Assembly (NCBI GenBank): GCA_041661645.1
Contig: JBAZUA010000001.1
Span: 192,189 to 256,188, forward strand
Length of the DNA stretch: 64,000 nt
Origin: Minisyncoccota bacterium
GTDB lineage: Bacteria > Patescibacteriota > Minisyncoccia > Phycocordibacterales > UBA6065
Direction: 5' to 3'
The number at the start of each line of letters is the position of its first letter. The stretch's first letter is position 1. Below are positions 1 through 63,286 of this stretch, in pieces. The notes under the pieces were generated by a model. That model did not search any database, was not told the DNA's origin, and worked only from the letters and a program-made list of their open reading frames with translations. The position numbers were made by a program, and so were the translations under genes.

Positions 1-201
1 ACCTGCGTACGTCTTCCATTCGACACCATTCTGAGACCCCTCATTTTGAGAGGCCTTACCTATGGACGACTGTTGGTTTTGCGCTACGGGTTCAGCAGAA
101 TACCTATCGCTATAAATGTAGATCCCCTCGCCCACGACCAAGATTGCCAGAATGCCTATTATCAGGAACGGGACAGTGAGACCCCTTGTGAATTGTTTCA
201 T
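1..201 (-). CDS. N-terminal part of a membrane-anchored or secreted hypothetical protein; partial, continues beyond the window start
   Basis: ATG at 201 on the minus strand (MKQFTRGLTVPFLIIGILAILVVGEG...) gives a hydrophobic N-terminal anchor. The reading frame stays open to position 1. A TATAAT box sits 8 nt upstream of the ATG. Confidence 0.35.
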   Translation of the reverse strand, partial: MKQFTRGLTVPFLIIGILAILVVGEGIYIYSDRYSAEPVAQNQQSSIGKASQNEGSQNGVEWKTYAG

Positions 202-235
202 GTTTCTAAATTATATGACGGGACAATAACTCACC

Positions 236-727
236 CTAAAGAGTAATCCCGAGGAGTTTAAGGACAAAGGCCGCGAACGGATCGGCGGTAGGGCCATATA
301 CAATCACCCCGCCGAGAAGGCCCGTCAGAGATATCGAGACGAGGGCCACAAGTGCCATGACTTTCGGGAACCATCCCTCGGCGAGGATCTTTTTGAGAAG
401 GACGATGATTGCCTTGTGATATTTCACCGACAGATAGCTCGAGACCTCCCCCGCCAAGAGCGCGACATAGAGCCATGTGGATATTGCCGCGAATGTCGAA
501 TGCGCCTCCACGAGCTGACTATTAGCTCGCATGAGCTCTTCTGCTGTTTCACCCGTGGTCAGCGCGACAAAGGCCCCCAACACACCAAGGAAAAGCAGAA
601 TGCGCTCCGCCTGCTTCCATGCCACGCCCGGAAACCACTTTTGAAGCGGCAAGACCCTGATGATCGAGTATATGAAAAGCAGCGCTATTGGAAAATGAAC
701 GAAAATCGGATGAAGATTATATGTCAT
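236..727 (-). CDS. Integral membrane protein (DUF2231-like, four predicted TM helices)
   Basis: 163 aa ORF with hydrophobic segments (HPIFVHFPIALLF..., LFLGVLGAFVALTTGE...). It resembles the DUF2231 membrane protein family. No enzymatic motifs. Confidence 0.5.
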   Translation of the reverse strand: MTYNLHPIFVHFPIALLFIYSIIRVLPLQKWFPGVAWKQAERILLFLGVLGAFVALTTGETAEELMRANSQLVEAHSTFAAISTWLYVALLAGEVSSYLSVKYHKAIIVLLKKILAEGWFPKVMALVALVSISLTGLLGGVIVYGPTADPFAAFVLKLLGITL

Positions 728-750
728 CCGATAAGTATAGCAGATGGGAG

Positions 751-1611
751 TTAGCCTTTGTTTCCCGCAGGTCTCACCATCTCGACATAGGGCAGTTTGT
801 CTTTAAAGAACCGCGTTGGTTTATCTGTCTTGACGAACCCGTACTTAGAATAGAAACCGAATGCCTCTTTGTTAAACGAGAAAACATCCAGGTAACTGGG
901 CTTGGTTTCGTCTGACCAGGTCAGGAACTCTTTCATGAGACTTCCTCCAATCCCCTTTCCTTTGGCCTCATCAAGAATGTAAATACCCTCAAGAATGTTG
1001 GACGTGCCACTTTTGGAGCAATGTAGAAAGCCCACGATCTTGCCGTCATCATTTTTCACGACTCGGTACAGGGTTTTGTCGGGATTTTCCAAAGCTTCGA
1101 TGATGGTATTTTTTCTATATTCGGTATCGGTGGCAAGATAGCCCACCATGTCATCAACCGCTTTTTCCGTTAGGCCAGATTCGGGACCGACATAAGATTC
1201 CTTCCACGACCGTACGTGCATGGGGCCTATAGCAAGCTCGTCGCCCACTCGGGGAAACTCTATTGTGAATGTCTGCATCTTAGATTTGGTCACTTCGAGC
1301 TTCATTTTCAAGACATCGACAATTTCTATAAATTCTGTTCGCTTCACATCCCATCCAAAGTGTCCCCTGTCAGTATATTCATGATACTCAGTCCCCAAAG
1401 ATCTGTGAACATGTCTGGGTTCATCTATTGGGATATAAGGATCGTCCGTCGACGCGAACTGGACTATCCATTTCTGATTATCGCGGATCTTGTCCCATTG
1501 CCAGGGCTTATCGTAATAATGACTCTGCTTCTCGGCATCATAGCCAAGATCGGTATAGCAGGCGCCGATTAGAATTGACCCCAAAATCTTATGGCTTTCC
1601 GCATAGCGCAT
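751..1611 (-). CDS. GNAT family N-acetyltransferase fused in frame to the C-terminal part of an RBBP9/YdeN-type alpha/beta serine hydrolase
   Basis: The N-terminal half (GHSSGALAAM...DRGHFGWD) matches the YdeN/RBBP9 hydrolase fold. The C-terminal half (ILDEAKGKGIGGSLMKEFL...FGFYSKYGF) has the GNAT acetyl-CoA binding motif Q/RxxGxG/A. The hydrolase N-terminus lies upstream but is separated by an in-frame TAG (see pseudogene feature). Confidence 0.6.
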   Translation of the reverse strand: MRYAESHKILGSILIGACYTDLGYDAEKQSHYYDKPWQWDKIRDNQKWIVQFASTDDPYIPIDEPRHVHRSLGTEYHEYTDRGHFGWDVKRTEFIEIVDVLKMKLEVTKSKMQTFTIEFPRVGDELAIGPMHVRSWKESYVGPESGLTEKAVDDMVGYLATDTEYRKNTIIEALENPDKTLYRVVKNDDGKIVGFLHCSKSGTSNILEGIYILDEAKGKGIGGSLMKEFLTWSDETKPSYLDVFSFNKEAFGFYSKYGFVKTDKPTRFFKDKLPYVEMVRPAGNKG

Positions 1612-1689
1612 GGCGGCAAGGGCCCCGGAAGAATGACCTATGAGAACAGTCTCCTCGTCAGCGCCAAGCGACTCAATAAAAGGCAGCTA

Positions 1690-1833
1690 GAACTCCATGC
1701 GTGCCAACGCAGGGTCTGGATATTGTCTATTGATTACCTTAATCCCAAGCTTGGATAATTCACGCTCAAGATATGGATAATAAATATCGTTTGGCGTCGC
1801 ACCTCCGTTACCTGGTATGAGTATGACTTTCAT
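1690..1833 (-). pseudogene. 5' fragment of the YdeN/RBBP9-like hydrolase gene, separated from the 751..1611 ORF by an in-frame TAG at 1687-1689
   Basis: ATG at 1833 gives MKVILIPGNGGATPNDIYYPYLERELSKLGIKVINRQYPDPALARMEF, then TAG. The same frame continues LPFIESLGADEETVLIGHSSGA.... This is the contiguous N-terminus of the hydrolase fold. Confidence 0.45.
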
Positions 1834-1882
1834 TTTAAAAACCTTCTTGGTTACTGAATCTTAGTATTTCCACCCCAACACA

Positions 1883-2305
1883 TCAATAATCAAAAGGCGA
1901 GAATCCCGCGTCCACGAAGTTCTGGAGCATGTAGAAGAGCGGCTTGGGCAGTCTGTCCCATGCGCACCATCGCCACTCGTAACATTTATCCGGCTCGGCG
2001 ACCGTCGGGTGGCCCGAGTCGTAGTCTGCGACGACGAACAGGGTCACATAGTGCTTTTCGTAGGGCAGGTTTTTGTCATTCGTGATGGGGCCCATGCGAA
2101 GCCTTTTGATCGTGACCGATGCCTCCTCGAGGGTCTCGCGGTGGGCGCAGTCGAACACGTCTTCCCTGAACTCTAGATGCCCGCCGGGAAGGGACCACAT
2201 GCCGTCGCCATGCTCGCCCTTTCTCTTGCCGATCAGGATCTGCTTGTATTTGACGACGAAGACGGCGACTCCGACTCCGGGACGAAAGGATTTGGGTAAT
2301 TCCAT
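1883..2305 (-). CDS. NUDIX hydrolase
   Basis: NUDIX box GGHLEFREDVFDCAHRETLEEASV (Gx5Ex7REUxEExGU). The start was chosen at the internal ATG (MELPKSF...). The ORF extends to 2374 with an alternative upstream start. Confidence 0.7.
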   Translation of the reverse strand: MELPKSFRPGVGVAVFVVKYKQILIGKRKGEHGDGMWSLPGGHLEFREDVFDCAHRETLEEASVTIKRLRMGPITNDKNLPYEKHYVTLFVVADYDSGHPTVAEPDKCYEWRWCAWDRLPKPLFYMLQNFVDAGFSPFDY

Positions 2306-2377
2306 GGGGGAAGTATAACAAATCTCTCTGTCGGCAGCCTGGAATGATGCCGGAACCCGTTTAGAGGCCCACAAACG

Positions 2378-3013
2378 TCAATCTTGGACAATGAGGCCAA
2401 AAATCGAAGAGAGATAGAGTGCCTGTTCGATGCTGACGGTCAGGCCCTGGATCGAATCCTTGTGTAGGGAAATGTTCTCAATATTCGAACCCTTCAGGCT
2501 TACCCCTGTCAGCTTGGCCTGCGAGAACTGCGAATCTTTCAAATTGCAGTTCTGGAACAAGACATCTTTCAACTCCGCTCCTTGGAAGTCGGATTCTCCC
2601 AAGTCACAGTTTATAAATGCGACACTTTTCATTTTGGCGAACCTCAGAGACAGGCCGTTGCCCTTGGACTCCCTTATAACCACGTCCCTCATATTCGCCC
2701 GGGTAAGATAAAGGCCCTGCAAGCGGGTATTCTCAATTTCCACTCTTTCGAGAAAGATATTGTCGGCTTTCACGCCCGTGAAGTTGCTCTTCTTGATTAT
2801 CGAGTCGGTAATCCTCATCTCTGAAATCGTGGAAGACTGCAGCGAAAGCTTGTCTGCGGCGACTTCGTTGAAATCTAATTCATCAAGCTTCTTGCCTTCC
2901 AAGGACGCCTCACTGAGCGACGCGGATTCGACGCGGATTGCTAGTGATTCGCTATCGATAGTAGCCTCGGTATCTGTGACCGATTTATTCAATACCGGCT
3001 TGCGAATTTCCAT
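2378..3013 (-). CDS. Pentapeptide-repeat protein
   Basis: Tandem A(D/N)LxX-type pentapeptide repeats run through most of the ORF (SLRFAKMKSVAFINCDLGESDFQGAELKDVLFQNCNLKDSQFSQAKLTGVSLKGSNIENISL). The ATG is at 3013 and a TTG at 3022 is also possible. Confidence 0.6.
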   Translation of the reverse strand: MEIRKPVLNKSVTDTEATIDSESLAIRVESASLSEASLEGKKLDELDFNEVAADKLSLQSSTISEMRITDSIIKKSNFTGVKADNIFLERVEIENTRLQGLYLTRANMRDVVIRESKGNGLSLRFAKMKSVAFINCDLGESDFQGAELKDVLFQNCNLKDSQFSQAKLTGVSLKGSNIENISLHKDSIQGLTVSIEQALYLSSIFGLIVQD

Positions 3014-3022
3014 ATTGGTCAA

Positions 3023-3640
3023 TTAATGATTGTATTGCTCAGATTTAAAGACATGGGCTTTGTCCGCGGAAGAATCTTCCGACATGATAAGCAGGTCGCT
3101 GTTTCCAAAATGGAATTGAGTAAGCACCCTCCCCCAGTCTAGATGATAGTATTCAGCGTAAATCATCTTCCCTATATCGCCGTGGGAGACCAGCAAGATA
3201 TTTCCGGATTTATGTTTCGAAAAGATTTTGTCTAACAACACTCGCCCTCGTTTCATGAGATCCGGAAAAGTCTCGGCCCCTTCAGGATCTAGGAAGTAGG
3301 TAATTATCTCGGCTTTGATGATATTTGGCGCGCACAACTTCTCAATATCAGATATATTTTTTCCTGTCATCACGCCAAAATCTCTTTCGATCAAAAGTGG
3401 TTCTACTGTCGGTGTGGGTGAGCTTGTTGATTCTGAGATGATTCTTGCGGTCTCAAAAGCCCTGATAAGGGGGGAACTATAAACTGTGTCGAACACTATT
3501 TCTGCAGCCTTTATTTTGTTTGCCACTTCCTGAGCCTGTTCAAGACCTTTTTGAGTCAGCGCCTCGTCGCGATGGCCGTTAAGGATTCCTTCTACATTAT
3601 CCTTATTTTGTCCGTGCCGTACAAGATAAATTTTGAGCAT
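3023..3640 (-). CDS. Histidine phosphatase family protein (phosphoglycerate mutase-like)
   Basis: N-terminal RHG catalytic motif (YLVRHGQNKDN) and a later SHG motif (LLVSHGDIGK). Confidence 0.7.
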   Translation of the reverse strand: MLKIYLVRHGQNKDNVEGILNGHRDEALTQKGLEQAQEVANKIKAAEIVFDTVYSSPLIRAFETARIISESTSSPTPTVEPLLIERDFGVMTGKNISDIEKLCAPNIIKAEIITYFLDPEGAETFPDLMKRGRVLLDKIFSKHKSGNILLVSHGDIGKMIYAEYYHLDWGRVLTQFHFGNSDLLIMSEDSSADKAHVFKSEQYNH

Positions 3641-3782
3641 AATAGCAATTTAGGATATGGGTATATCATACCATTCCACCGAATGACTTGAGGCCACCTC
3701 AACTTGGTTGCCGTATAGTACGACGCCGGAACCTTCATTGGGCGGTCAGACAATCACGCAAATTGACATTTTCCTATATATA

Positions 3783-4292
3783 ATGCAATGTATTAAGATT
3801 CGTCGACGTTCGACGGATTCAAACAACAAACAGAAAGGAATTGGTTTGAAAAGACTTTATCTACCGCAAGTTCTTTGGCACAAATGGTTCGTCTTGCTGG
3901 CCGGTCTTAGGGTCAAGGGAATCCCCTTTTGGAGACTCGTGGTTCACGACTGGACCAAGTTTCTCCCGGTCGAATACGGGGTATACCGTCGGAAGTGTAC
4001 CGGGGGCAGATATTTTAAAGATGAGTGGGAGAAAGCGAAGTGGCACCACTATCTCTCCAACCCCCACCACTATCAGTATTGGATCAAGGATGGGGTTCCG
4101 GATCCGATGCCGGACGTGTTCGTCAGGGAGATGGTGGCCGATTGGATGGCCGCCGGTCGGAGCTATGAAGGGAGCTGGGAAATTCAGGGCTGGCTGGCTG
4201 AAAATTACAAGAAATTCAACCTACACCCGTCGACGCTGGAAAGACTCAAGGTCATCCTGTCGTCTCAGGGACTCGCCTGGCCAGAAGGCTGA
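3783..4292 (+). CDS. Hypothetical protein (Trp/His-rich; conserved segment WHHYLSNPHHYQYW)
   Basis: ORF with an AT-rich upstream region. I recognise no domain. It lies in a low-GC island. The start was chosen at ATG 3783. Confidence 0.4.
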   Translation: MQCIKIRRRSTDSNNKQKGIGLKRLYLPQVLWHKWFVLLAGLRVKGIPFWRLVVHDWTKFLPVEYGVYRRKCTGGRYFKDEWEKAKWHHYLSNPHHYQYWIKDGVPDPMPDVFVREMVADWMAAGRSYEGSWEIQGWLAENYKKFNLHPSTLERLKVILSSQGLAWPEG

Positions 4293-4321
4293 ATCCTCCG
4301 AATCATAAAAGAAACCTCAAG

Positions 4322-4356
4322 GCCTGTGACATAGCAATATGTTGCAGGCTTTTTTT
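4322..4356 (+). terminator. Intrinsic terminator after the 3783..4292 gene
   Basis: Hairpin gcctg-tgacatagcaatatgttg-caggc followed by ttttttt. Confidence 0.5.
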
Positions 4357-4457
4357 GTTGGTTGGCCTCCTCAGGGTAGAACCGCGCTCGTCTAAACCGC
4401 TTTATGGTGGTTTAGACGTTCTTTATCGTATTAAAACAACCCATCTTGAGCGATGTG

Positions 4458-4994
4458 TTATCTATCCACAGGAAACTCATCCTTGATCTCTGTGGCTATC
4501 TTCATTTCTAAGGCCTCAGTAGCACTGAGTACTTTTCCTTCAACTAGAATATTTCTTGTATCACCTTCTGGCTTTTGAAGTTCCGAGGCTATTATTTCAA
4601 AATATCTTTTGTCTAGCTCTTGTAACAGAGAGGTTGTTTCTTTGTGAACAGAAATCACCTGGGCTTGCTGGGGTCCACTATATGTTGGTTCATGTAATCT
4701 CACTCTACAATCTTTTACTAATGTGCGTTTAGTTCCACTTAAGAAAAGCACAAGTGCCGCAGAATCCACTTGCCCGAACCCTACTGTATTAAGCCTGATT
4801 TTTGATGATTTGATGAAATCATAGAAGCGTATAGCAGAATCAATATCACCACCCGTCGACGATATATAAAGAGTTACTTGGACATTAGGATTTGCGTGAA
4901 ATTGTTTGAATATCTCTATAATGGCAGTTCCGATGGTGCTTTCATTCACAGCGCAAGGTAACATGTACCAATATTTCATGTCTTTTGGAGGCAT
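4458..4994 (-). CDS. ClpP/crotonase-fold serine peptidase-like protein
   Basis: YISSTGGDIDSAIRFYDFIK resembles the ClpP-family segment INSPGG-V-AGLAIYDT. The gene is low-GC relative to the core genome. Confidence 0.45.
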   Translation of the reverse strand: MPPKDMKYWYMLPCAVNESTIGTAIIEIFKQFHANPNVQVTLYISSTGGDIDSAIRFYDFIKSSKIRLNTVGFGQVDSAALVLFLSGTKRTLVKDCRVRLHEPTYSGPQQAQVISVHKETTSLLQELDKRYFEIIASELQKPEGDTRNILVEGKVLSATEALEMKIATEIKDEFPVDR

Positions 4995-5201
4995 AGTTTT
5001 TTGTTGTAGATTAATAATTTAAGGAAGATAAACACACGCTTCTCATAAGCAGAATTATAACAAAAATTAATCAAAAGGTTGATTTTTGTCTGACCCATCA
5101 TTTTGAGAATTCTTGAGTGATATAAACTAAACTCAACTTGGTTGGCCGACCCGAGTTGGAACCATTAGCGGTCAAGACCTGCAATGTCGGTTTGTTACAT
5201 T

Positions 5202-5639
5202 TTATTGTACCAAATCGACGGGACTTGAGCGTTTGGCTCTTAAGTAGTTTTCCATCAGTTCAATGTCTTTATGATCCTTTGGACGATTGTATTCCGTCTT
5301 AAATTTAATCAAATCATCAAGACAAATAAAAGGTATACCGCTAAAGTATTCCGCCTTGCTCAACAATTCTTGGAGAGTTGGATTAAAATTTCTACAATTA
5401 ACATCTGTATATAGTTCGATGTCCCCTTGTTTGAGATATATTTCTCCAGGCTTGTCTGGATATGTGTAATGCATGGTTTTCCATCCTTTATTCTTGCACC
5501 CTTCGAATATTTCTGGGGAGACAACAATATCAATATCATGAATTTCTTTGAGTCCATGCATCGCCATGATTCCACTACCCACCACAACGTACTGGTCCTT
5601 GGTTAGTTTTAGATTTTTGACTTGATTAATTATATCCAT
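5202..5639 (-). CDS. Lnu/LinA-like minimal nucleotidyltransferase (Pol-beta superfamily)
   Basis: GSGIMAMHGLKEIHDIDIVV provides the GS...DxD NTase motif, with an HxDIDI core as in LinA. The C-terminal IPFICLDDLIKFK resembles LinA IPCISKEAQLLFH. It is low-GC. The ORF-track N-terminal extension overlaps the tRNA and was trimmed to MDIINQ. Confidence 0.45.
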   Translation of the reverse strand: MDIINQVKNLKLTKDQYVVVGSGIMAMHGLKEIHDIDIVVSPEIFEGCKNKGWKTMHYTYPDKPGEIYLKQGDIELYTDVNCRNFNPTLQELLSKAEYFSGIPFICLDDLIKFKTEYNRPKDHKDIELMENYLRAKRSSPVDLVQ

Positions 5640-5671
5640 ATATTTTAACGCTTCTCGAGCGATGCTCTTGT

Positions 5672-5746
5672 TGGTTGCCAGGCAGGGATTCGAACCCCGA
5701 TTACACGCCTTCAAAGGGCGGCGTCCGACCATTAGACGACCCGGCA
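5672..5746 (-). tRNA. tRNA-Gln (anticodon UUG), CCA encoded
   Basis: Manually folded cloverleaf. Acceptor TGCCGGG/CCTGGCA, anticodon loop CTTTGAA, T-loop TTCGAAT. A 3' CCA is present. Confidence 0.75.
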
Positions 5747-5769
5747 ATATAGACCGACACCCGCTAAAC

Positions 5770-6801
5770 CTACTTCCCCTCCCCCGCCACGTCAAGAACG
5801 ACGAGCTCGAGGGGAAGCTCCTTTATCGGCGACACGCCCACTTGGTCGAAAGCGCCGAGCAGGGCGCGAAGAAGCTTTGAGTCGACGACTGCATTCTTGT
5901 TTCCAACGACGGCTTTGGCAAAAGATCGATCCTCCTCGCTCGCCTGGCTGCGGGCATCGGACTCCACGTCCATCTTCTCGAGGAGGGCGAGACGGGCAAG
6001 AGACACGACGAGCTCAAGGAAGAGCTTGGGGTCGAATGACCTGCGCTTCACCTCGGCGAGGGCGGCGAAGGCCTTGGGAGCGTCGTGCGAGGCTAAGGCC
6101 AGCACGAAGGCGCGCACGAATTCTGATTTTGGCGCGCCGGTCGCCTCCTCGACATGGGCGCGGGTGATCTTCTTCCCCTCCAGGCCGGCAATGCCGCGTT
6201 CCAATGCGCCATGCGCGTCGCGGAATGATCCCTCGCTCACCAGGGCAAGAAGCTCAGCGGCGGCAGGCTCGATCGAGAAACCTTCCTTCTGTGCCACGTC
6301 CACTATCAAATCCTTCAAGGTATCAAGGGTCGGCCTGCGGAACTCGAACACCTGACAGCGAGAGACGATGGTGTCGGGCAGCTTGTGCGACTCGGTGGTG
6401 GCAAGTATGAAGACGACATGCTTCGGCGGCTCTTCCAAAGTCTTCAAAAGTGCGTTGAAAGCCTCTTTCGTGAGCATGTGAACCTCATCGATGATATAGA
6501 CCTTGTACTTGGACTCGAACGGCAAGGTGGAGACCGCATCGCGAAGGGCACGCACGTCGTCGATGCCGCGATTAGATGCCGCGTCTATCTCGTAGGTGTC
6601 ATTGGCACTCGTGCCGATGGCTCGGGCGAAAATTCGAGCGATGGATGTCTTGCCTATGCCACGGGATCCAGCGAACAGATATGCGTGGGCGATGTTGCCG
6701 CTTTCCGCCACGGCCGAGAGGGCCTTGACCACGCTGCCCTGGCCGATGATCTCGGCAAAGGTCTGGGGTCGATATTTCCGGTACAGCACCTGATGTGTCA
6801 T
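5770..6801 (-). CDS. dnaX: DNA polymerase III subunit gamma/tau (short form)
   Basis: YRPQTFAEIIGQ..., Walker A GSRGIGKTS, and LDTL...IIDEVHML clamp-loader motifs. Confidence 0.85.
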   Translation of the reverse strand: MTHQVLYRKYRPQTFAEIIGQGSVVKALSAVAESGNIAHAYLFAGSRGIGKTSIARIFARAIGTSANDTYEIDAASNRGIDDVRALRDAVSTLPFESKYKVYIIDEVHMLTKEAFNALLKTLEEPPKHVVFILATTESHKLPDTIVSRCQVFEFRRPTLDTLKDLIVDVAQKEGFSIEPAAAELLALVSEGSFRDAHGALERGIAGLEGKKITRAHVEEATGAPKSEFVRAFVLALASHDAPKAFAALAEVKRRSFDPKLFLELVVSLARLALLEKMDVESDARSQASEEDRSFAKAVVGNKNAVVDSKLLRALLGAFDQVGVSPIKELPLELVVLDVAGEGK

Positions 6802-6827
6802 GGAATGAGTATACCAGAAGCCGTGAT

Positions 6828-6853
6828 AAACGCCTCAATCGATTGAGGCGTTT
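6828..6853. repeat. Palindromic hairpin element AAACGCCTCAATCGATTGAGGCGTTT (copy 1 of 3)
   Basis: Perfect 13+13 palindrome. Related copies lie at 14648-14687 and 47648-47675. Confidence 0.6.
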
Positions 6854-6951
6854 CGGGCAAGAAAAAAGGCGACATGCGGAATGCACGTCGCCCGGGCCTG
6901 ATTGAGTCGCCAGCAAGTTATCCACGAGGGTACCGACGACAGACCCCAAAG

Positions 6952-7347
6952 TCAGTGGACGCCCTGCGAGCGAGGTCTCTTCCTGAGGGCCTCCGAAAGC
7001 GTGAGGCCGGGACCGAATTTCCTGCGCCTGGCACGGGCCATGGCAATGGGATCACTCAGCCTGACCGCAACCTTCTTCTGCTTGACCCGATACTGGAGAA
7101 TGTCGCCCTCGCCAACCTTGCGATAGAGGGTGTAGCTCAGCTGCCTCGATATCCTGCTATTCAGGATGTAGTCGATGACCTCCTGGCTATCGACCCGAAA
7201 GACATTCCTCTGCGCTGGCTCACCCGACGAGGGAATGACCGTCTTGCCCTCGCAGGCCTCCACCTTGTCGCCAAGACTGACAAAGGCGTCGTTCGTGAAA
7301 GCGTCGCCCGGCTCGAAATACCACGTGGTATTTGCTTGTTTCGTCAT
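6952..7347 (-). CDS. Hypothetical protein with a basic C-terminus
   Basis: Strong SD AGAGGAGGAAC lies 6 nt upstream of ATG 7347. Intrinsic terminators lie on both sides. No recognisable domain. Confidence 0.45.
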   Translation of the reverse strand: MTKQANTTWYFEPGDAFTNDAFVSLGDKVEACEGKTVIPSSGEPAQRNVFRVDSQEVIDYILNSRISRQLSYTLYRKVGEGDILQYRVKQKKVAVRLSDPIAMARARRRKFGPGLTLSEALRKRPRSQGVH

Positions 7348-7446
7348 ATGGTTGTTCCTCCTCTGTTGATGTGCTTGTTTCTTACCCATTACCCTACTCC
7401 TCTTTGGGGATTTGTAAACGGAGCGAGGTGCATAAAATGAAAACCC

Positions 7447-7480
7447 GCCATTTGAAGTGGCGGGTGGGCTTGAAGCCCTT
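7447..7480. terminator. Bidirectional intrinsic terminator
   Basis: cccgccatttgaagtggcggg hairpin, plus gggcttgaagccc hairpin and T-run on the plus strand. On the minus strand the first hairpin is followed by TTTTCATTTT. Confidence 0.55.
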
Positions 7481-21592: not shown

Positions 21593-21664
21593 GGGCCTAT
21601 AGTTTCAATGGTAAAACATCTCACTCCAAACGAGAGGTTCCAGGTTCGAGTCCTGGTGGGCCCG
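21593..21664 (+). tRNA. tRNA-Trp (anticodon CCA)
   Basis: Acceptor GGGCCTA/TGGGCCC. Anticodon loop CTCCAAA as in E. coli tRNA-Trp. T-arm CCAGG-TTCGAGT-CCTGG. Confidence 0.7.
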
Positions 21665-22328
21665 CAAATACGGTCAAATCTAGTTTAAAGCACTCTGCCG
21701 CAACAGCCCTTAGTTCCCGAGAAATTCTTACATCGTGATAACGAAGATTGGCGCATCCCTGATATCCCTCTTTTCTACAGAGGCCGGAATTCTTTTTCTG
21801 AAAAGTCTTTATGAATTGACTCGTCGGCACCCCGGTGACTTTCGACCACAGGGCAAGTTGGGCCGACACGTCATGATATGAATGAAGATGCATTTGAACC
21901 CTAAACTTACCCTCATCGAGAGAAAAGGAGGCACGGAGGGTGTTTACGAAAAGCCTCATGAGTCCAGGGTCAGAATTCATGAAAGACACTCCCGAATAGG
22001 GTGACTTAGTTCCCTCGCAGACATAAAGCATGGCGCAGAGAAAAAGCGAGGAGTCCCGATTAAATCGCACCTTCGAAACCATCTTCCGAGCACGTCTCAG
22101 AGCTTCGTCTTCCTTGCCAAGCCTTCTGTTTCGAAGGGTCTCCTGGGAACGCAATTGTCCAACGACGGATTTTGCCAGCAGTTTCTCCCTCGCTTCCGCC
22201 GAAAGGACCACATTTCTCACCCACGTCGAGACCGAGCTTTTAGACACGCCCAAAGCAGTCACTATCTCATTCAGAGAATAGCCCTGTTTCCTCAGCTCCA
22301 TGGCCCTCATTTTCTGCGCTGCCTTCAT
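21621..22328 (-). CDS. HTH-domain protein with a possible LAGLIDADG-like nuclease C-terminal domain; its 3' end overlaps tRNA-Trp
   Basis: N-terminal HTH (GYSLNEIVTALGVSKSSVSTWVRN). C-terminal LFLCAMLYVCEGTKS...VSFMNSDPGLMRLFVNTL resembles the LAGLIDADG motif plus beta-sheet. Lower GC than its neighbours. Start chosen at the MKAAQK ATG. The longer track ORF overlaps rpmG in another frame. Confidence 0.4.
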   Translation of the reverse strand: MKAAQKMRAMELRKQGYSLNEIVTALGVSKSSVSTWVRNVVLSAEAREKLLAKSVVGQLRSQETLRNRRLGKEDEALRRARKMVSKVRFNRDSSLFLCAMLYVCEGTKSPYSGVSFMNSDPGLMRLFVNTLRASFSLDEGKFRVQMHLHSYHDVSAQLALWSKVTGVPTSQFIKTFQKKNSGLCRKEGYQGCANLRYHDVRISRELRAVAAECFKLDLTVFAGPPGLEPGTSRLE

Positions 22329-22408
22329 GCCACAATCGTAGCAAAAGGGTGATAAAGGAATTATAAAGACCAAAGAAAAAGGCCGCCCTTCGGGCGGCCC
22401 TTTCGCGA

Positions 22409-22564
22409 CTACTTCTTCGCCTCCTTGAAGACGACGCGCTTCCTGAGAAGCTTTGAGTACTTCTTGAGCTCGATCTTGCGCTCCACCTTCTTCTTGTTCT
22501 TTCGGGTGTAGTAGACCTCGCCGGTGGCCTTGTTCTTGAGAATGATGAGTGAGTCCTGTGACAT
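22409..22564 (-). CDS. rpmG: 50S ribosomal protein L33
   Basis: MSQDSLIILKNKATGEVYYTRKNKKKVERKIELKKYSKLLRKRVVFKEAKK matches the bL33 consensus (YxTxKNKK...LELKKY...V..KE.K). Confidence 0.7.
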   Translation of the reverse strand: MSQDSLIILKNKATGEVYYTRKNKKKVERKIELKKYSKLLRKRVVFKEAKK

Positions 22565-22636
22565 AAATTGAATGAAAATGTTGTAGGAGGATAGTATCAC
22601 AGCCTCCATAAAACCGCAATACGCGCCCGTAATCGG

Positions 22637-31908: not shown

Positions 31909-31980
31909 GGCCACGTAGAAAAGTGGTAATTCGGAGATCTGCAAAATCTCTATGCGCGAGTTCGATTCTCGCCGTGGCCT
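31909..31980 (+). tRNA. tRNA-Cys (anticodon GCA)
   Basis: Acceptor GGCCACG/CGTGGCC. Anticodon stem-loop GAGAT-CTGCAAA-ATCTC. T-arm GCGAG-TTCGATT-CTCGC. Confidence 0.75.
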
Positions 31981-32004
31981 CAAGGACGTTTCTTCGATAC
32001 AAGG

Positions 32005-32088
32005 TGGGTCAGGTGGGGGTCGAACCCACATCCGCTTTCGCGGACACCATTTTAAGTGGTGCGCGTATACCAGTTCCGCCACTAACCC
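32005..32088 (-). tRNA. tRNA-Leu (anticodon UAA), long variable arm
   Basis: Acceptor GGGTTAG/CTGACCC. D-arm as in Leu tRNAs (TGGCGGAACTGGTATACGC). Anticodon loop CTTAAAA. Variable arm TCCGCGAAAGCGGAT. Confidence 0.7.
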
Positions 32089-32221
32089 GATACCGAGAAG
32101 ATTATCACCTCGCACGCCTTTAGACCAACCTCGGTGGGAGCAAGACTTATATCGCAGATAAAAACTGGAAAAAAAGACAGATATGCGTTAAGATGGCTTT
32201 CGTCCCCAGACAGCGCAATAT

Positions 32222-32294
32222 CCTCCCTTAGCTCAGTTGGTAGAGCTGCTCCCTCTTAAGGAGAAGGTCGTAGGTTCGATTCCTACAGGGAGGA
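32222..32294 (+). tRNA. tRNA-Lys (anticodon CUU)
   Basis: Acceptor CCTCCCT/AGGGAGG. D-arm GCTC-AGTTGGTA-GAGC. Anticodon loop CTCTTAA. T-arm GTAGG-TTCGATT-CCTAC. An intrinsic terminator follows at about 32305-32350. Confidence 0.7.
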
Positions 32295-32389
32295 CAAACG
32301 AACGAAAGGCCGAAATGAGAAAACTCATTCCGGCCTTTCTGATACACAGAAGAGGGTGTCAAAATATTATTTGACAAAATCTTAAAAAA

Positions 32390-32695
32390 ATGGAGTATTC
32401 GAAGAAGAACCATATGCAACTTACATCCTACAGACTCTCTGGTTACGAAGGCTATTTCGTAAAAGGAGACGGGAGCACCCATGTGTGCGACAACTCTTGT
32501 TATCAACTGGAATTCAAGGCAAAAGGTGACGCCTCTGCGATAAGGCGCTCACTGGCCAGGGTCCGAACATTCGCAAGGACCTTCGAAGGGGCCGATTGGT
32601 ATAAGTTCGAGGTCGCCCTCCATCGCAAGGACAGCAAAGACGAGAGTCCGCTGCTCAAAGCCTCGGTAATCAAGAATTTGAAGAGGAAACCCTGA
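32390..32695 (+). CDS. Small hypothetical protein (101 aa)
   Basis: ORF preceded by an AT-rich promoter-like region (TTGACA at 32372) and followed by a terminator (gccggc hairpin plus tttttatt at about 32720-32757). Confidence 0.4.
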   Translation: MEYSKKNHMQLTSYRLSGYEGYFVKGDGSTHVCDNSCYQLEFKAKGDASAIRRSLARVRTFARTFEGADWYKFEVALHRKDSKDESPLLKASVIKNLKRKP

Positions 32696-32761
32696 TCCCG
32701 TCAAAATACGACAACGCCCTCCAAGCCGGCTTTCCAAAAAGAACGCCGGCTTTTTATTGTC

Positions 32762-32790
32762 TTGACCCACCCCTCGATGTCATCTACTAT
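32762..32790 (+). promoter_or_regulatory. Sigma70-type promoter TTGACC-17-TACTAT driving tRNA-Leu(UAG)
   Basis: The -10 box ends 9 nt before the tRNA 5' end. Confidence 0.5.
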
Positions 32791-32799
32791 GTCCCTAAC

Positions 32800-32880
32800 G
32801 CGCGAGTGGTGAAATGGCAGACACACCTGCCTTAGGAGCAGGCGCCGCAAGGCATGGAGGTTCAAGTCCTCTCTCGCGCA
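32800..32880 (+). tRNA. tRNA-Leu (anticodon UAG), long variable arm
   Basis: Acceptor GCGCGAG/CTCGCGC. Anticodon stem-loop CCTGC-CTTAGGA-GCAGG. T-arm GGAGG-TTCAAGT-CCTCT. Confidence 0.7.
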
Positions 32881-32897
32881 CAGCAAGGACGACAAGA

Positions 32898-32926
32898 TTG
32901 ACTTTTTCTATTTTAAATGATATTGT
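32898..32926 (+). promoter_or_regulatory. Sigma70-type promoter TTGACT-17-TATTGT upstream of the response regulator gene
   Basis: Consensus spacing. GGAG lies just before ATG 32934. Confidence 0.45.
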
Positions 32927-32933
32927 TTTGGAG

Positions 32934-33362
32934 ATGAAAAAAGCTCCTTGTCTCAAACCCCTTGTCCTCATCGTCGAGGACACCAGGGACATTGCGATAC
33001 TGTATCGCCACATGCTCAGCGCGCTCGGCATCAACACGGTAGCCAGCGCAGAAACGATAGCGGAGGCAAAAGCCAATGTCGCCAAAATCGACTTTGACAT
33101 AATCCTCTCCGACAACAGCCTGCCTGATGGCAAGGGTCTCGATTTCCTTAACAAGATGGCGCTTCGCCACCCGGGAACCTATCGATGCCTCATAACGACA
33201 GATCTCGATCTGACGGCCGGCGACAAGCTCAGGCACAACTTCAAGGCGAAGCCCCTTAAGTTGAGCGAAATGGAGGGTATAATCGAGGCCGCAAAGAAGC
33301 ATGCCGAGGAACATGCGGCGGCGAGACAGGCCGCAAGGCGGTCCGCAAGAAAGACTCACTGA
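32934..33362 (+). CDS. Single-domain response regulator (CheY-like receiver)
   Basis: LIVEDTRD acidic pocket. Phospho-acceptor region DIILSDNSLPDGKG. Conserved Lys in FKAKPLK. A terminator follows at 33371-33413. Confidence 0.6.
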   Translation: MKKAPCLKPLVLIVEDTRDIAILYRHMLSALGINTVASAETIAEAKANVAKIDFDIILSDNSLPDGKGLDFLNKMALRHPGTYRCLITTDLDLTAGDKLRHNFKAKPLKLSEMEGIIEAAKKHAEEHAAARQAARRSARKTH

Positions 33363-44689: not shown

Positions 44690-45060
44690 AGTAGTAGCAT
44701 ACGGACCAAGGCCTAAGCTCCTTGGAAACAAAGAAAACTCGAATTCCTGGGCGTGAGCGCCCTCGAACAGGCCAAACCCGTCGTGCGGGCACGACGGGGG
44801 TTGCAGGACCTCAGCACAGGCCCATCTAGCGAACGGGTCCAGGGGCACCTAAGTAGCCTTTGTCCCAGCGCGAACGGGACAGGGGCGAATCCGGCAGACA
44901 ACCCCGCCACAAGTGTCCAACCGCACGCGTCGCAACGCGTGTACGAAGTGGCGACGGCGCTGCCAAGCCTAAATCCGACGAGCTTTTGCTGCATAGCCGC
45001 ACTCCTGCAGGGTGTGGCTATTTTGTTTGAGACATCCTCGTCACTTGCCAAACGAGCACG
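44690..45060. ncRNA. Candidate structured non-coding RNA (unassigned)
   Basis: An approximately 370-nt GC-rich non-coding stretch between divergent genes. It is packed with perfect hairpins: CCAAGG-ccuaagcu-CCUUGG, CCCGUCGU-gcgggc-ACGACGGG, ACGCG-ucgcaa-CGCGU, GUCCC-agcgcgaac-GGGAC. The ORFs in it are implausible. Confidence 0.3.
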
Positions 45061-45130
45061 CCTACTGCCTATGTCTATTTTTTATTTTCTCTTTATAGGT
45101 TTTCACTCCATCCCATAGCAAAATAAGCTC

Positions 45131-45547
45131 ATGCAGAGGAAGAACTCACCATCAAAACCATACGGCCAGCTCGCCACGAAAAGCGACGTGAGGGAAATTG
45201 TCACGGAAGTCATCGACAACTTTGCCATCATGATGAAACGCAGCTTCGACGACATCAACGATAGAATGGTGACAAAGGAAGAGTTCAACGAATTCAAGGC
45301 TGAAATGCATGAGTTCAAGGATGAGATGCATGAGTTCAAAACGAATATGCTTGAATTCAAAGACGGCACAGAACCAGCCCTATACAGCCTTCAAACGGAT
45401 ATGCTCGACGTCAAATCAAGACTAACAAAGGTAGAGACCGGACTGACGAACGTCGAAAACGGCGTCACATCCCTCACGGCGGCCGTGCGCAGCAACTGGC
45501 GTGATCACGAAGGTCGCATTACCAGACTCGAGGAGCGAGTCACCTGA
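45131..45547 (+). CDS. Coiled-coil repeat protein, paralog A
   Basis: N-terminal ATKSDVREIVTEV. Central EFKAEMHEFKDEMHEFKTNMLEFK repeats. C-terminal VRSNWRDHEGRITRLEERVT. Paralogous to 52296..52775. Confidence 0.5.
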   Translation: MQRKNSPSKPYGQLATKSDVREIVTEVIDNFAIMMKRSFDDINDRMVTKEEFNEFKAEMHEFKDEMHEFKTNMLEFKDGTEPALYSLQTDMLDVKSRLTKVETGLTNVENGVTSLTAAVRSNWRDHEGRITRLEERVT

Positions 45548-45667
45548 TTGAATGGGTCTATCGTGTAAAACCCTTTGCGGACATGGGTGATTTCCATATT
45601 TTGCACCCAGATTGACAGACCCCCTCATAAGAGTAGTCTTGTGAACAGGAAACCCAATGCTCATCAA

Positions 45668-46306
45668 ATGAATACCGTAACAGAATCAAACGAACTACAG
45701 GAAGTCAAATTCCTTAAACTGCAAATGACCAGACAGGCCGAACGGGCCAACAGCATGGTGGGGGAAATAAAAGACCTCTACCAAAAGCTGAGAACCGAGG
45801 AATGCCTAGAGGTCGAGATTACGGAAAAATACAACAAATCCGTGACGGCCCTCGTCATCGACGAAGCCGAACGCAGGGGCGTATCATTCTGCAGCCTCTG
45901 CGAAGAAGAAAGGCCGGCCTCGTCCATGGTCTGCGTGCTCTTCACGGGATCAAAGATCATAAGGATGGGAGACCACGGGACAGAGACAGAATATCTGAGG
46001 GACTTCTCCACGCCTCATCTGCTCTGCCCGACCTGCCTCGACACACACACCAAGAAAAGCGGCTGGATAGGACCATTCAACTCCATCGCCCAGGGTTCCG
46101 AGACGTTTTATCTCTGGCATACGGACAAGCGTTCGGACGGGCTTTACGCCCACGTCCTCGGATACAACAAGCTCGTGCCCGTAAAACCACCACAGGCGAT
46201 CCCGCCCGACAAGATAAACGAAAAGGCCTCGCAGTGGGGCCTTCCGACAACCATCGGGTTTCCCCACAGGAGACTTAATGAGCCCACGGAACGTGGCTGG
46301 GACTGA
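45668..46306 (+). CDS. Hypothetical protein with two CxxC pairs (possible zinc ribbon)
   Basis: CSLCEEE...CPTCLD. Start chosen at MNTVTESNEL. AT-richer than the core. A terminator follows at 46328-46365. Confidence 0.4.
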   Translation: MNTVTESNELQEVKFLKLQMTRQAERANSMVGEIKDLYQKLRTEECLEVEITEKYNKSVTALVIDEAERRGVSFCSLCEEERPASSMVCVLFTGSKIIRMGDHGTETEYLRDFSTPHLLCPTCLDTHTKKSGWIGPFNSIAQGSETFYLWHTDKRSDGLYAHVLGYNKLVPVKPPQAIPPDKINEKASQWGLPTTIGFPHRRLNEPTERGWD

Positions 46307-61985: not shown

Positions 61986-62076
61986 CAGTCAGACTTTTTT
62001 ATCGGCAGACCCTGAGGCCTATGGATTTAGACAAAAGAAAACCGCCCGACGAGAGCCAGGAGGCTTTCGTGGACGG

Positions 62077-62565
62077 TCAAACCGTCGAAACTGCAAGAAC
62101 GAGATATTGTTCGGTCATATCTCTGTCCCAGATGAAGCTCTGAGCATCATTTTGCAAACCAATTCCAGGGACGTCGCTCTCGTCGCCGTCGTAGCCGAAG
62201 ATGGGGCCTCGACGGGCCGCGAGCGGCTGCTCCTTGCGAAACATCTCAACTTCGAAACGATTCGCGGGGCGGAGACCCATTTTTCCGAGCTTCTCTATCA
62301 TCTCTTCGGGCCGATGCATCATCTTGCCAAATTTGATGAGGTGGGCTTCGCCACCCTCGATGCCTTTCAACTCGAGACGAGTCAAGAGACCTCGTTCGAT
62401 GCCGACCACCGCATGGTGGTTGCCTTTGACATGGGCCGCAGGATCAAAGATAGCCGGAAAAATTCCTACCTCCAAGATGTCCTGAAACCTTTCGGGTGTC
62501 ATCTTATGCTGCTCGAGGAGTTGGAGGAAGTTTGCTAGCTGACCAGACGTAATCGTAGTTTTCAT
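62077..62565 (-). CDS. Hypothetical protein (162 aa)
   Basis: ORF in an AT-richer block downstream of the tRNA pair. No domain recognised. It lacks the peptide deformylase motifs I first considered. Confidence 0.4.
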   Translation of the reverse strand: MKTTITSGQLANFLQLLEQHKMTPERFQDILEVGIFPAIFDPAAHVKGNHHAVVGIERGLLTRLELKGIEGGEAHLIKFGKMMHRPEEMIEKLGKMGLRPANRFEVEMFRKEQPLAARRGPIFGYDGDESDVPGIGLQNDAQSFIWDRDMTEQYLVLAVSTV

Positions 62566-62859
62566 GACGAATCTTTTCGTTTCAGAAGCTATCCCCTATG
62601 AGAGGTAGCATGGGATTGTGCTTGGTCAACCGTTGTGGTTTACCATAGCCCTGAAACTCCTGTGAGAGGCTCGGGGCTATGGTAAACGAGTTTTAATGTA
62701 CTGATTTAACTTTATATATTATAACTCTTTTATATGTATATTGTCAAGTAATGCGTCTGTGACCCGTAGACCTTATTTAGAGCCATGAAATGGTGCTAAA
62801 ATATGCTTACAAGGTCTCATTGGGAAAGTTCGAATCCCTGAGACACCGCCAACAACAAA

Positions 62860-62892
62860 AAGGCGCCGTACGAACGGCGCCTTTTTCTTACA
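62860..62892. terminator. Bidirectional intrinsic terminator (ggcgccg-tacgaa-cggcgcc flanked by A5 and T5)
   Basis: Seen directly. Confidence 0.55.
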
Positions 62893-62908
62893 CTTTCTTC
62901 CCCACCCT

Positions 62909-63286
62909 TTATGCCGACACCACCCCACCCTTCCCCATCTTCTGATACCCCACGTACGAAACGACCAGTATCACCATCGCGATGATCGGGAAATACGCCA
63001 CACCAAAACCGTCGACGACCGCGATGCTGACAAAGGCCGCGATGAAATCGATGGCGAAGCCGGCATACGCCCATTCCTTGACCCTCTTTGGGACGAACGG
63101 GAGAATCAGCGCCAATGCGCCGAGAACCTTGAAGACGGTGAGCATGTTGCCGAAATACAGAGGATAGCCCAGGTGAGTGAAGCCGTCCTTTGACATCTGT
63201 GACTGCGAGGTGAGCGCGGGCATGACGCCCTCGAGCAGGAATATAAGCGAAGTCGCGATCCAAAACGATATTTTTGCTTTTTTCAT
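62909..63286 (-). CDS. DoxX family membrane protein
   Basis: Four-TM DoxX-like pattern (FWIATSLIFLLEGV..., GALALILPFVP...). Confidence 0.6.
   Translation of the reverse strand: MKKAKISFWIATSLIFLLEGVMPALTSQSQMSKDGFTHLGYPLYFGNMLTVFKVLGALALILPFVPKRVKEWAYAGFAIDFIAAFVSIAVVDGFGVAYFPIIAMVILVVSYVGYQKMGKGGVVSA

Follow-up and report, generated by a model that had tools for sequence, protein, structure and literature searches.

What has been laid down at the 3' end of a single tRNA gene in a Paceibacterota genome: one acquired island, or several insertions in succession? The question is raised by a 64-kb stretch of a metagenome-assembled genome (MAG) of this group, which belongs to the candidate phyla radiation (CPR); the whole stretch is called the window here. 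In a sequence-only reading, positions of about 3660 to 5760, beside tRNA-Gln(UUG), had been taken for one AT-rich, horizontally acquired island of three genes with a possible antibiotic-modification or defence function. Mobile elements and gene-flow routes of CPR/Patescibacteria have been little described, and a full-text literature search found no paper on tRNA-linked islands in these bacteria. We suggest, with a probability of roughly 0.55, that this Paceibacterota lineage has an insertion hotspot immediately downstream of the tRNA-Gln 3' end, and that the flagged segment was built up by three or more separate insertions stacked one upon another. The locus is a real tRNA-anchored accessory region, of a well-known kind; what is unusual is its small-cassette architecture with a module that mimics the tRNA.

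The tRNA-Gln(UUG) gene, which anchors the array, lies at 5672-5746 on the minus strand, as had been proposed (ARAGORN; Rfam tRNA model, 53.5 bits), and its 3' end faces the block. The conserved core gene dnaX (5770-6801, minus strand; Pfam, NCBIfam) flanks it on the right. Leftward from the tRNA, the three expected open reading frames (ORFs) are all present: a Pol-beta-type nucleotidyltransferase (NTase) gene on the minus strand, the gene of a ClpP-fold protein on the minus strand and, on the plus strand, the gene of the His/Trp-rich protein, which belongs to the family DUF5662. They are followed by the minus-strand genes for a histidine phosphatase, a pentapeptide-repeat protein, a NUDIX protein, a hydrolase-GNAT fusion and a DUF2231 protein. 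The longest NTase ORF (5202-5795) does run across the tRNA, as had been noticed, and the homologues set the true start at 5639 (MDIINQ). The block begins directly at the tRNA 3' end (5672; NTase start 5639).

The G+C content (GC) is 0.377 at 5149-5671 and 0.379 at 4369-5148, versus 0.564 over 5672-64000. For the NTase and ClpP-like genes, the GC is 0.363 and 0.387, and the GC at third codon positions (GC3) is 0.36 and 0.32 (lowest in the window), respectively, versus a mean of 0.70 with a standard deviation of 0.11 for the 62 ORFs called right of the tRNA. Both genes are therefore distinguishable from their flanks, and the composition is atypical throughout 4369-5671. The DUF5662 gene, by its composition, is host-like (GC 0.535, GC3 0.66). 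Accordingly, the AT-rich segment that had been drawn from about 3660 to 5660 is confirmed for about 4300-5671 (GC 0.38), but not for the DUF5662 gene, and the strongly atypical block comprises two genes over about 1.4 kb. The histidine phosphatase gene, which had been counted as GC-rich core, is itself AT-rich (GC 0.43, GC3 0.46) and belongs to the variable region. The whole of 1-5671 lies under the window average (0.44-0.52), with a mean GC of 0.48 over 1-3714, and the variable region is far larger than 3660-5760.

An independent Logan assembly of the same genome (L001; the L-numbers denote retrieved comparison loci and contigs) reproduces positions 1-7468 of the window with one mismatch and reaches 4.2 kb further left. 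In it, the variable block, counted from the tRNA, spans at least 7.8 kb before an adenine glycosylase gene (L001:9574-10146) is reached beyond the left end of the window; positions 1-3640 are an older or other portion of this region, continuing beyond the left edge. Could the block be an artefact, with low-GC DNA of another organism fused into the contig through a tRNA-like repeat? The sequence does come from a metagenome assembly, and the inserts resemble DNA of co-occurring lower-GC CPR bacteria. However, the agreement of L001 over 1-7468, the internal position of the inserts with host-like sequence on both flanks, and the presence of a lineage-specific module at the junctions, described below, make such a joining error hardly credible.

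Is the block, then, present at the same site in relatives? The GTDB representative genomes are too distant for a test of synteny, with dnaX at most 57% identical, though the succession of dnaX and tRNA-Gln is kept in the seven Paceibacterota-like loci checked. Sister lineages with dnaX 87-92% identical were found by protein search, and six loci were retrieved from them (L095, L105, L106 and L107, and the short contigs L094 and L096). Among named organisms, Candidatus Taylorbacteria has the closest dnaX. The order FtsQ-like gene, dus, dnaX, tRNA-Gln is preserved in L095, L105 and L107 (dnaX 87-89% identical). Between the window and L095, the tRNA-Gln genes are 96% identical, and the DNA match stops no more than 2 nucleotides from the tRNA 3' end; between L105 and L107, it likewise stops within a few nucleotides of that end. 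Overall, homology breaks off at this end in four related genomes (dnaX about 87-90% identical), and what follows the tRNA differs among the window, L095, L105 and L107. In L107, there is no insert, and a conserved HMA/DsbD2 gene begins 7 nucleotides after the tRNA. In L105, the tRNA adjoins an insert of roughly 1 kb and low GC (0.37) that contains two small ORFs and is followed by CsoR-DUF305-CopA. In L095, about 6 kb of other small genes (tRNA_bind, an APH-family kinase, DUF6624, LMWPc) precede an adenine glycosylase gene that is 76% identical to L001:9574-10146, and synteny resumes only there. None of the window genes left of the tRNA, including the three of the flagged segment, is found downstream of tRNA-Gln in L095, L105 or L107.

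The best non-self homologues of the ClpP-like protein and the NTase are 71% and 63% identical, respectively. There is no orthologue of either at 85-90%, though the sister genomes sit in the same protein database, and it is for this reason that we regard the two genes as acquired. All homologues of the two lie on contigs of 35-49% GC, the longer of which are CPR-like in gene content, and they occur there as singletons in unrelated contexts. The horizontal acquisition of the NTase and ClpP-like genes is well supported, and their donors were most likely lower-GC CPR bacteria. With the atypical composition of two of the three genes and their absence downstream of tRNA-Gln in the three relatives, the earlier proposal of horizontally acquired cargo at a tRNA hotspot is borne out. 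The exact NTase protein is absent from the contig index searched, and an exact 37-nucleotide tRNA-Gln pattern had no match in JGI metagenome contigs.

The junctions between the genes bear most directly on the number of insertions. The pattern GGTTC.{8,24}C[AC]ACCA, which represents the T-loop, the 3' strand of the acceptor, A73 and CCA of the tRNA, has four matches in the window, all on the tRNA strand: the tRNA itself (5696) and three sites denoted C (5163), B (4383) and A (3733). The latter belong to three decayed copies of the tRNA-Gln 3' end (near 5139, 4359 and 3705), one per intergenic gap, which divide the block into units of one gene each. A search for attachment (att) sites marked by repeats of the tRNA 3' end had been suggested, and these three same-strand copies are of that type, in degenerate form. 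Module C (5138-5231, minus strand) runs from CGCTCAAG just within the 3' end of the NTase gene to the pseudo tRNA-Gln 3' end GGTTCCAACTCGGGTCGGCCAACCAA, where the pattern matches. Module B (4358-4452, minus strand) runs from CGCTCAAG, 5 nucleotides past the stop codon of the ClpP-like gene, to the pseudo-3' end GGTTCTACCCTGAGGAGGCCAACCAA. In module A with its hairpin (3687-3772, minus strand), the pseudo-3' end GGTTCCGGCGTCGTACTATACGGCAACCAA is followed by GTTGAG-GTGGC-CTCAAG, ending 46 nucleotides upstream of the start codon of the histidine phosphatase gene. Short hairpins also follow the tRNA itself and module C. Junction hairpin T (5654-5670, minus strand; sense CAAGAG-CATCG-CTCGAG, then AAGCG) is directly 3' of the tRNA, and the NTase start codon is 14 nucleotides beyond it; junction hairpin C (5112-5137, minus strand) reads GTTGAG, 14 nucleotides and CTCAAG in the sense direction. 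The sequence AACCAASWWGAG, which joins the tRNA end to the start of the short hairpin, occurs three times versus 0.03 expected.

The homology of modules B and C spans about 95 nucleotides, from CGCTCAAG at or just beyond the end of the ORF to GGCCAACCAA. Their alignment score of 25 compares with a shuffle mean of 9.6 (standard deviation 1.9) and was reached in none of 2000 shuffles; in the separate shuffle tests, z was 6.9 for B against C and 5.4 for A against C, with 0/1000 shuffles in each case. The same module of about 95 nucleotides also borders the different low-GC insert of the sister genome L105. The distal end of that insert, which is the top-scoring window across the whole L105 locus, matches B with z=6.0 (0/1000 shuffles) and C with z=4.2, and the L105 tRNA flank matches C with z=7.8 (0/1000 shuffles) and A with z=4.3. 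At junction C, 29 of 36 positions are identical to the L105 tRNA-Gln flank, and hairpin T is homologous to that flank and to junctions A and C. It should be noted that a generic alignment of the tRNA and its flank with the whole window did not single out A, B or C, other tRNAs or chance sites scoring equally or higher; the junction signal is seen only with the motif-level and module-to-module tests. In IMG/VR, the hairpin module had 23 matches, all chance-like in unrelated sequence and none beside a tRNA-like end.

The tRNA-Gln gene itself is peculiar in the window, since it alone among the 11 tRNA genes encodes CCA (…GGCA-A-CCA); the other ten have the discriminator base and C, then A or T. 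Among the loci L094-L101, obtained with the C-terminal part of dnaX as query, and L105-L107, the encoded CCA and the same hairpin occur only in L105 and L106, which carry the low-GC insert, while L094, L095, L097-L101 and L107 have no encoded CCA and no hairpin after tRNA-Gln. The more distant GTDB representatives L002 and L006 encode CCA in tRNA-Gln. An origin of the CCA-bearing copies from a retro-element or primer-binding site was set aside, as some Paceibacterota tRNA-Gln genes, those of L002 and L006, encode CCA.

Alternatively, the region might be vertically inherited and fast-evolving, and the tRNA-like pieces and hairpins might be signals for RNA processing or termination in a dnaX-tRNA-NTase-ClpP transcript. 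The NTase and ClpP-like genes are indeed co-directional with dnaX and the tRNA, with a module behind each stop codon and a hairpin ahead of every following gene. However, the consensus of modules B and C folds with only -8 kcal/mol over about 150 nucleotides, without a convincing shared structure, and no tRNA-like Rfam score was obtained. Moreover, the genes are absent downstream of tRNA-Gln in the relatives, their GC3 is strongly atypical, and homology breaks off at the tRNA end. An origin as RNA signals is consequently very unlikely. The same weak fold of the B and C alignment led us to drop the idea that the modules are structured RNAs or attC-like sites.

The serial insertion of small units accounts for these features as follows. 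An incoming element would bring a mimic of the tRNA-Gln 3' end, comprising the T-loop, the acceptor strand, A73 and CCA, and recombine with the end of the tRNA, whose 3' end would be rebuilt by the element's copy together with an encoded CCA. This would explain why tRNA-Gln alone encodes CCA. Older insertions would be displaced outward, leaving a decaying pseudo-3' end at each former junction (C, B and A). Each unit would consist of a short hairpin, an ORF and the 3' module of about 95 nucleotides, and would stem from lower-GC donors, probably other CPR bacteria. The unit nearest to the tRNA, of 523 nucleotides, contains a hairpin, the NTase ORF and a module reaching 30 nucleotides into the 3' end of the ORF; the second, of 780 nucleotides, contains a hairpin, a 41-residue ORF, the ClpP-like ORF and a module. 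Both have one main gene each and 38% GC, and are oriented like the tRNA. Since no recombinase is carried, the units would have to be moved in trans, like cis-mobilisable elements (CIMEs). The DUF5662 gene may represent a unit that is older or that came from a donor of similar GC.

Several observations weigh against serial insertion. The pseudo-3' ends are degenerate, each with only a weak likeness to the end of the resident tRNA (z about 3, 9-18/1000 shuffles), and none scores as a tRNA, an Rfam scan of 3000-6200 at E<=10 having returned only the real one. The homology of the modules is based on five junctions in two genomes, and the score of the distal L105 module (19.5) is equalled by chance windows in other loci. 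By Pfam, no integrase or other recombinase domain is encoded by the window genes to the left of the tRNA, by the five additional ORFs of L001 or by the variable-region ORFs of L095 and L105, and neither a circular form nor an empty site within the species was observed. The homologues of the cargo genes elsewhere are not beside tRNAs and are without the module. The comparison covers about 10 kb per relative, so that absence from the whole genome is indicated only indirectly, by the protein searches. Finally, the DUF5662 unit is inverted and host-like in GC, and for these two reasons its status as a separate insertion is the weakest. The case for the repeats is carried by the junctions as a family, with their positions and strand, rather than by a single copy.

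With regard to those homologues, no module was found in the flanks of the ClpP-like and NTase homologues, and no tRNA adjoins the ClpP-like homologues or occurs in L082 and L093; in L083, a tRNA-Trp is located about 450 nucleotides upstream of the NTase homologue. In L093 (610-1677), on a lower-GC contig, the NTase homologue of 63% identity stands directly after a His_Phos_1 gene. The product of the latter is only 32% identical to the histidine phosphatase of the window, and the pairing may be coincidence.

Could the units instead be remnants of a few larger elements, such as prophages or integrative elements with integrases, that entered at tRNA-Gln and lost their integrases and most of their genes by streamlining, without ever having been mobile singly? 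The same att-type repeats and the same composition would fit such remnants. Degenerate elements with scattered partial tRNAs have been documented for another streamlined genome (bioRxiv 10.1101/2020.12.28.424599). All three proteins have weak PHROG relatives, and a gene-free segment of 177 nucleotides between the tRNA and a 17-nucleotide repeat in L101 resembles a deletion product. On the other hand, both tRNA-proximal units (523 and 780 nucleotides) retain both ends with room for one ORF, and two such exact deletions are less parsimonious. The third unit, in L105, has a homologous 3' module and other cargo, and is also integrase-free. Furthermore, neither the NTase nor the ClpP-like family has a close relative in IMG/VR or in GenBank phages: the protein-family scans of IMG/VR gave no match for the ClpP-like protein and one for the NTase, at 25% identity, and no NTase match was found in GenBank phages. 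Decay from larger elements is thus possible though rather unlikely, and single-gene units moved in trans are favoured over it because two consecutive units are intact at both ends and a third such unit is present in L105.

Displaced tRNA-Gln 3' ends downstream of the tRNA were also observed at L095:14387-14410 and L101:10731-10747, and these two are mutually homologous (z=8.4). The copy in L095 differs from the end of its own tRNA and is identical to that of tRNA-Gln in L100 and L101, two relatives of low GC. In L101, the 17-nucleotide repeat is exact and lies 177 nucleotides after the tRNA, with no gene between. In L003 (11045-11073), a second copy of the 5' part of tRNA-Gln, 90% identical, is located about 100 nucleotides upstream of the tRNA, between dnaX and the tRNA.

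How does such an array compare with known mobile systems? Tandem accretion at tRNA genes has been described (PMC4891358, PMC3146451), and in Prochlorococcus tycheposons, successive integrations at island tRNAs leave partial tRNAs (bioRxiv 10.1101/2020.12.28.424599). The islands at the Klebsiella asparagine tDNA, the Dehalococcoides ssrA gene and the Prochlorococcus tycheposon sites share with the window the insertion at a tRNA 3' end, the junction repeats, the newest element nearest the tRNA, the atypical composition and a content that differs between related genomes. However, the units of the window measure 0.5-0.8 kb with one gene each, versus several to tens of kb in those islands, their repeats are about 60-75% alike rather than near-exact, and no integrase, whole or fragmentary, was detected by Pfam in the variable-region ORFs examined.

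CIMEs are flanked by att sites, lack a recombination module and are moved in trans by the integrase of a related element, as known from work on ICESt1/3 of Streptococcus thermophilus. They resemble the units of the window in the att-like borders, the lack of a recombinase of their own and the stacking beside the integration site; they differ in that no partner element with an integrase was identified for the window, whose units are only putatively mobile.

The likeness to integron cassettes lies in the single, mostly co-oriented ORFs, the recombination-type module of about 95 nucleotides, the single fixed site with the newest cassette nearest the anchor, and a placement suited to read-through from the anchor. 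In contrast to an integron, there is no intI, the anchor is a tRNA 3' end that the module mimics, flanked by dnaX and dus, and the modules have neither the long imperfect palindrome of an attC site nor a strong shared hairpin. It might be speculated that some Paceibacterota possess an integron-like but unrelated platform for gene capture, in which promoterless single-gene cassettes with the tRNA-mimicking module of about 95 nucleotides enter at tRNA-Gln as a fixed site and are shuffled there by means of a recombinase encoded elsewhere, an idea that we consider doubtful at present. A candidate for that recombinase in trans may be the family of a helix-turn-helix (HTH) protein encoded at 21621-22619.

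The gene of this HTH protein (minus strand) has a low GC3 of 0.47 and overlaps tRNA-Trp (21593-21665), and its product cannot be classified past a transposase-type (IS3/IS630-like) N-terminal HTH, the only domain seen in it. A 30%-identical homologue is inserted between dnaX and tRNA-Gln at L095:10498-11247, and also in L096, so that the copies in the window and in both relatives abut or overlap tRNA genes. The protein may be part of a mobile element or a trans-acting factor for tRNA-linked insertions.

In any case, tRNA-Gln provides a concrete, recurrent insertion site in one Paceibacterota lineage, with a junction module that can be searched for, and very small integrase-free units, probably from lower-GC CPR donors, would make up the variable gene pool there. 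If the cassettes are real, they would represent a new gene-capture system, a compact way for ultra-small genomes to sample accessory genes; otherwise, the locus is an ordinary decayed tRNA island.

What do the cargo genes encode? The NTase of the tRNA-nearest unit (5202-5639, minus strand; 145 amino acids) belongs to the Pol-beta nucleotidyltransferase superfamily by its conserved motifs and by a fold search topped by NTases. The residues G21-S-G23, D35, D37 and E75 are conserved among 13 aligned homologues, and the AlphaFold2 model has a predicted local distance difference test score (pLDDT) of 92. Pfam DUF6036 matches at E=1.3e-4, under the curated cutoff. The nearest folds by Foldseek are TM1012 (PDB 2ewr), ANT(2'')-Ia (5cfs) and MenT1 (8an5), with query TM-scores (TMq) of 0.54-0.65, E >=1e-3 and 13-19% identity. 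These proteins are similar to the NTase in size (145-195 amino acids), in having a core and a C-terminal helical part, and in the GS and DxD motifs; they differ from it in the low identity, the lack of any NCBIfam or PADLOC match in the NTase and the lack of an antitoxin neighbour. A phmmer and family-profile search of PDB sequences gave chance matches only.

NCBIfam includes models for the Lnu and ANT resistance families. At E<=0.01, none of its families matches the NTase. The Lnu/LinA identity that had been assigned to the NTase was therefore abandoned, with no NCBIfam or PDB match and with LinB at rank 41 (probability 0.14) in the fold search. The likeness in fold to ANT(2'')-Ia is weak (TMq 0.54, E 4e-3, 13-15% identity), and no ANT model of NCBIfam or Pfam matches the NTase; to MenT1, fold likeness is the only link (TMq 0.61). 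A MenT/AbiEii (DUF1814) toxin was rejected, as there is no Pfam or PADLOC match and no antitoxin-like neighbour here or beside the homologues. An MNT-HEPN toxin-antitoxin pair, which the sequence-only reading had considered, fails likewise, since the neighbours are the tRNA and the ClpP-like gene and no HEPN partner is present here or in L082, L083 and L093. One homologue, P0012 (247 amino acids), has the NTase domain fused to an inorganic pyrophosphatase domain (PF00719), which is consistent with a predicted nucleotidyl transfer that releases pyrophosphate. From its motifs, the protein is best described as a putative stand-alone minimal nucleotidyltransferase, and it should not be annotated as a lincosamide or aminoglycoside resistance gene.

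The ClpP-fold serine peptidase-like protein (4458-4979, minus strand; 173 amino acids; Pfam CLP_protease, family alignment) contains YISSTGGDIDSAIRFYDF, as had been reported. Ser73 and His96 are invariant among 26 family members and coincide in the alignment with the active-site Ser and His of ClpP2, and a conserved Gly occupies the position of the triad Asp, so that the Ser-His-Asp triad is incomplete. The family profile matches PDB ClpP2 at 5.6e-21, and Pfam CLP_protease matches at 7.5e-18, with 65.5 bits versus a domain cutoff of 20.2 bits. The NCBIfam ClpP equivalogs give only 35-62 bits versus cutoffs of 228-361 bits, and the profile starts at residue 29 of E. coli ClpP, the N-terminal axial-loop segment being absent. 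Like ClpP (MEROPS S14) and the phage head-maturation proteases, the protein has a near full-length fold, the oxyanion SxGGD, and the Ser and His. Unlike ClpP, it is without about 24 N-terminal residues, which form the axial loops that dock AAA+ partners, and has Gly for the triad Asp; unlike both, it occurs as a singleton in non-phage contexts. Judging from the alignment, it is a putative N-terminally truncated ClpP-fold Ser-His peptidase-like variant, and "ClpP" in its annotation should be understood in this sense.

The DUF5662 protein (3846-4292, plus strand; 148 amino acids; TTG start) is oriented opposite to the other genes and belongs to a large family (2059 clusters at E<=0.001). H12, H34-D35, K38, H68, H74-H75, E95 and D99 are invariant, giving the pattern H…HD…H…HH…E…D. 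The protein models as an HD-superfamily fold with the metal ligands H…HD…D, and its Foldseek matches are not significant. PDB sequence searches gave nothing, including no match to a solved HD protein. It differs from HD-GYP domains and PgpH in this respect, in its length of only 148 amino acids and in having no GYP motif. A small HD-fold phosphohydrolase is suggested by the model, and annotation as an HD-fold protein is justified.

Could the three genes still form one acquired island, whose products act jointly or singly in antibiotic modification (Lnu/ANT), defence or toxin-antitoxin functions? In favour of such functions, the NTase retains the catalytic residues GSG, DxD and E, its closest folds include ANT(2'')-Ia and the toxin MenT1 (TMq 0.54-0.61), and the fusion of its homologue to an inorganic pyrophosphatase suggests real nucleotidyl transfer. 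Nevertheless, the fold matches are weak (E >=1e-3, 13-19% identity), and the lack of any NCBIfam or PADLOC match leaves the NTase with no Lnu, ANT or other resistance model. PADLOC matches neither the ClpP-like nor the DUF5662 protein. In the contexts of the NTase and ClpP-like homologues, the two are always alone, never adjoining each other or a DUF5662 gene and never with an antitoxin or HEPN partner. In addition, the genes of the window are separated by att-like junctions, are unlike in composition, and one of them is on the other strand. A joint island of this kind is highly improbable, and no evidence was found that the three genes act together or for a defence or resistance role. The sequences point instead to unrelated accessory enzymes of differing origin.

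Some smaller features complete the locus. The AT-rich ORF of 41 amino acids in the second unit (4976-5101, minus strand) begins right after hairpin C, and its stop overlaps the start of the ClpP-like gene (ATGA). It was also called in L001 by the gene caller and has no Pfam match; it may be spurious or a leader peptide. The terminators of its own that had been ascribed to the segment do exist as terminator-like hairpins: one with a T-run after the DUF5662 gene (4319-4352, plus strand), abutting module B, and another at 4389-4418.

Further left, all on the minus strand and all identified by Pfam, are the histidine phosphatase (3023-3640), the pentapeptide-repeat protein (2378-3022), the NUDIX protein (1883-2374), the hydrolase-GNAT fusion (751-1611) and the DUF2231 protein (236-727). 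A 48-residue ORF (1687-1833, minus strand) and the N-terminal 130 or so residues of the GNAT protein, a part without a Pfam match, resemble two pieces of one alpha/beta-hydrolase gene joined to GNAT, which could be a frameshift or a split gene. Elsewhere in the window, three other 1-kb stretches have a GC below 0.50 (32001-33000, 45001-46000 and 62001-63000) and could be further small insertions; the first of them falls in a cluster of four tRNA genes (31909-32881).

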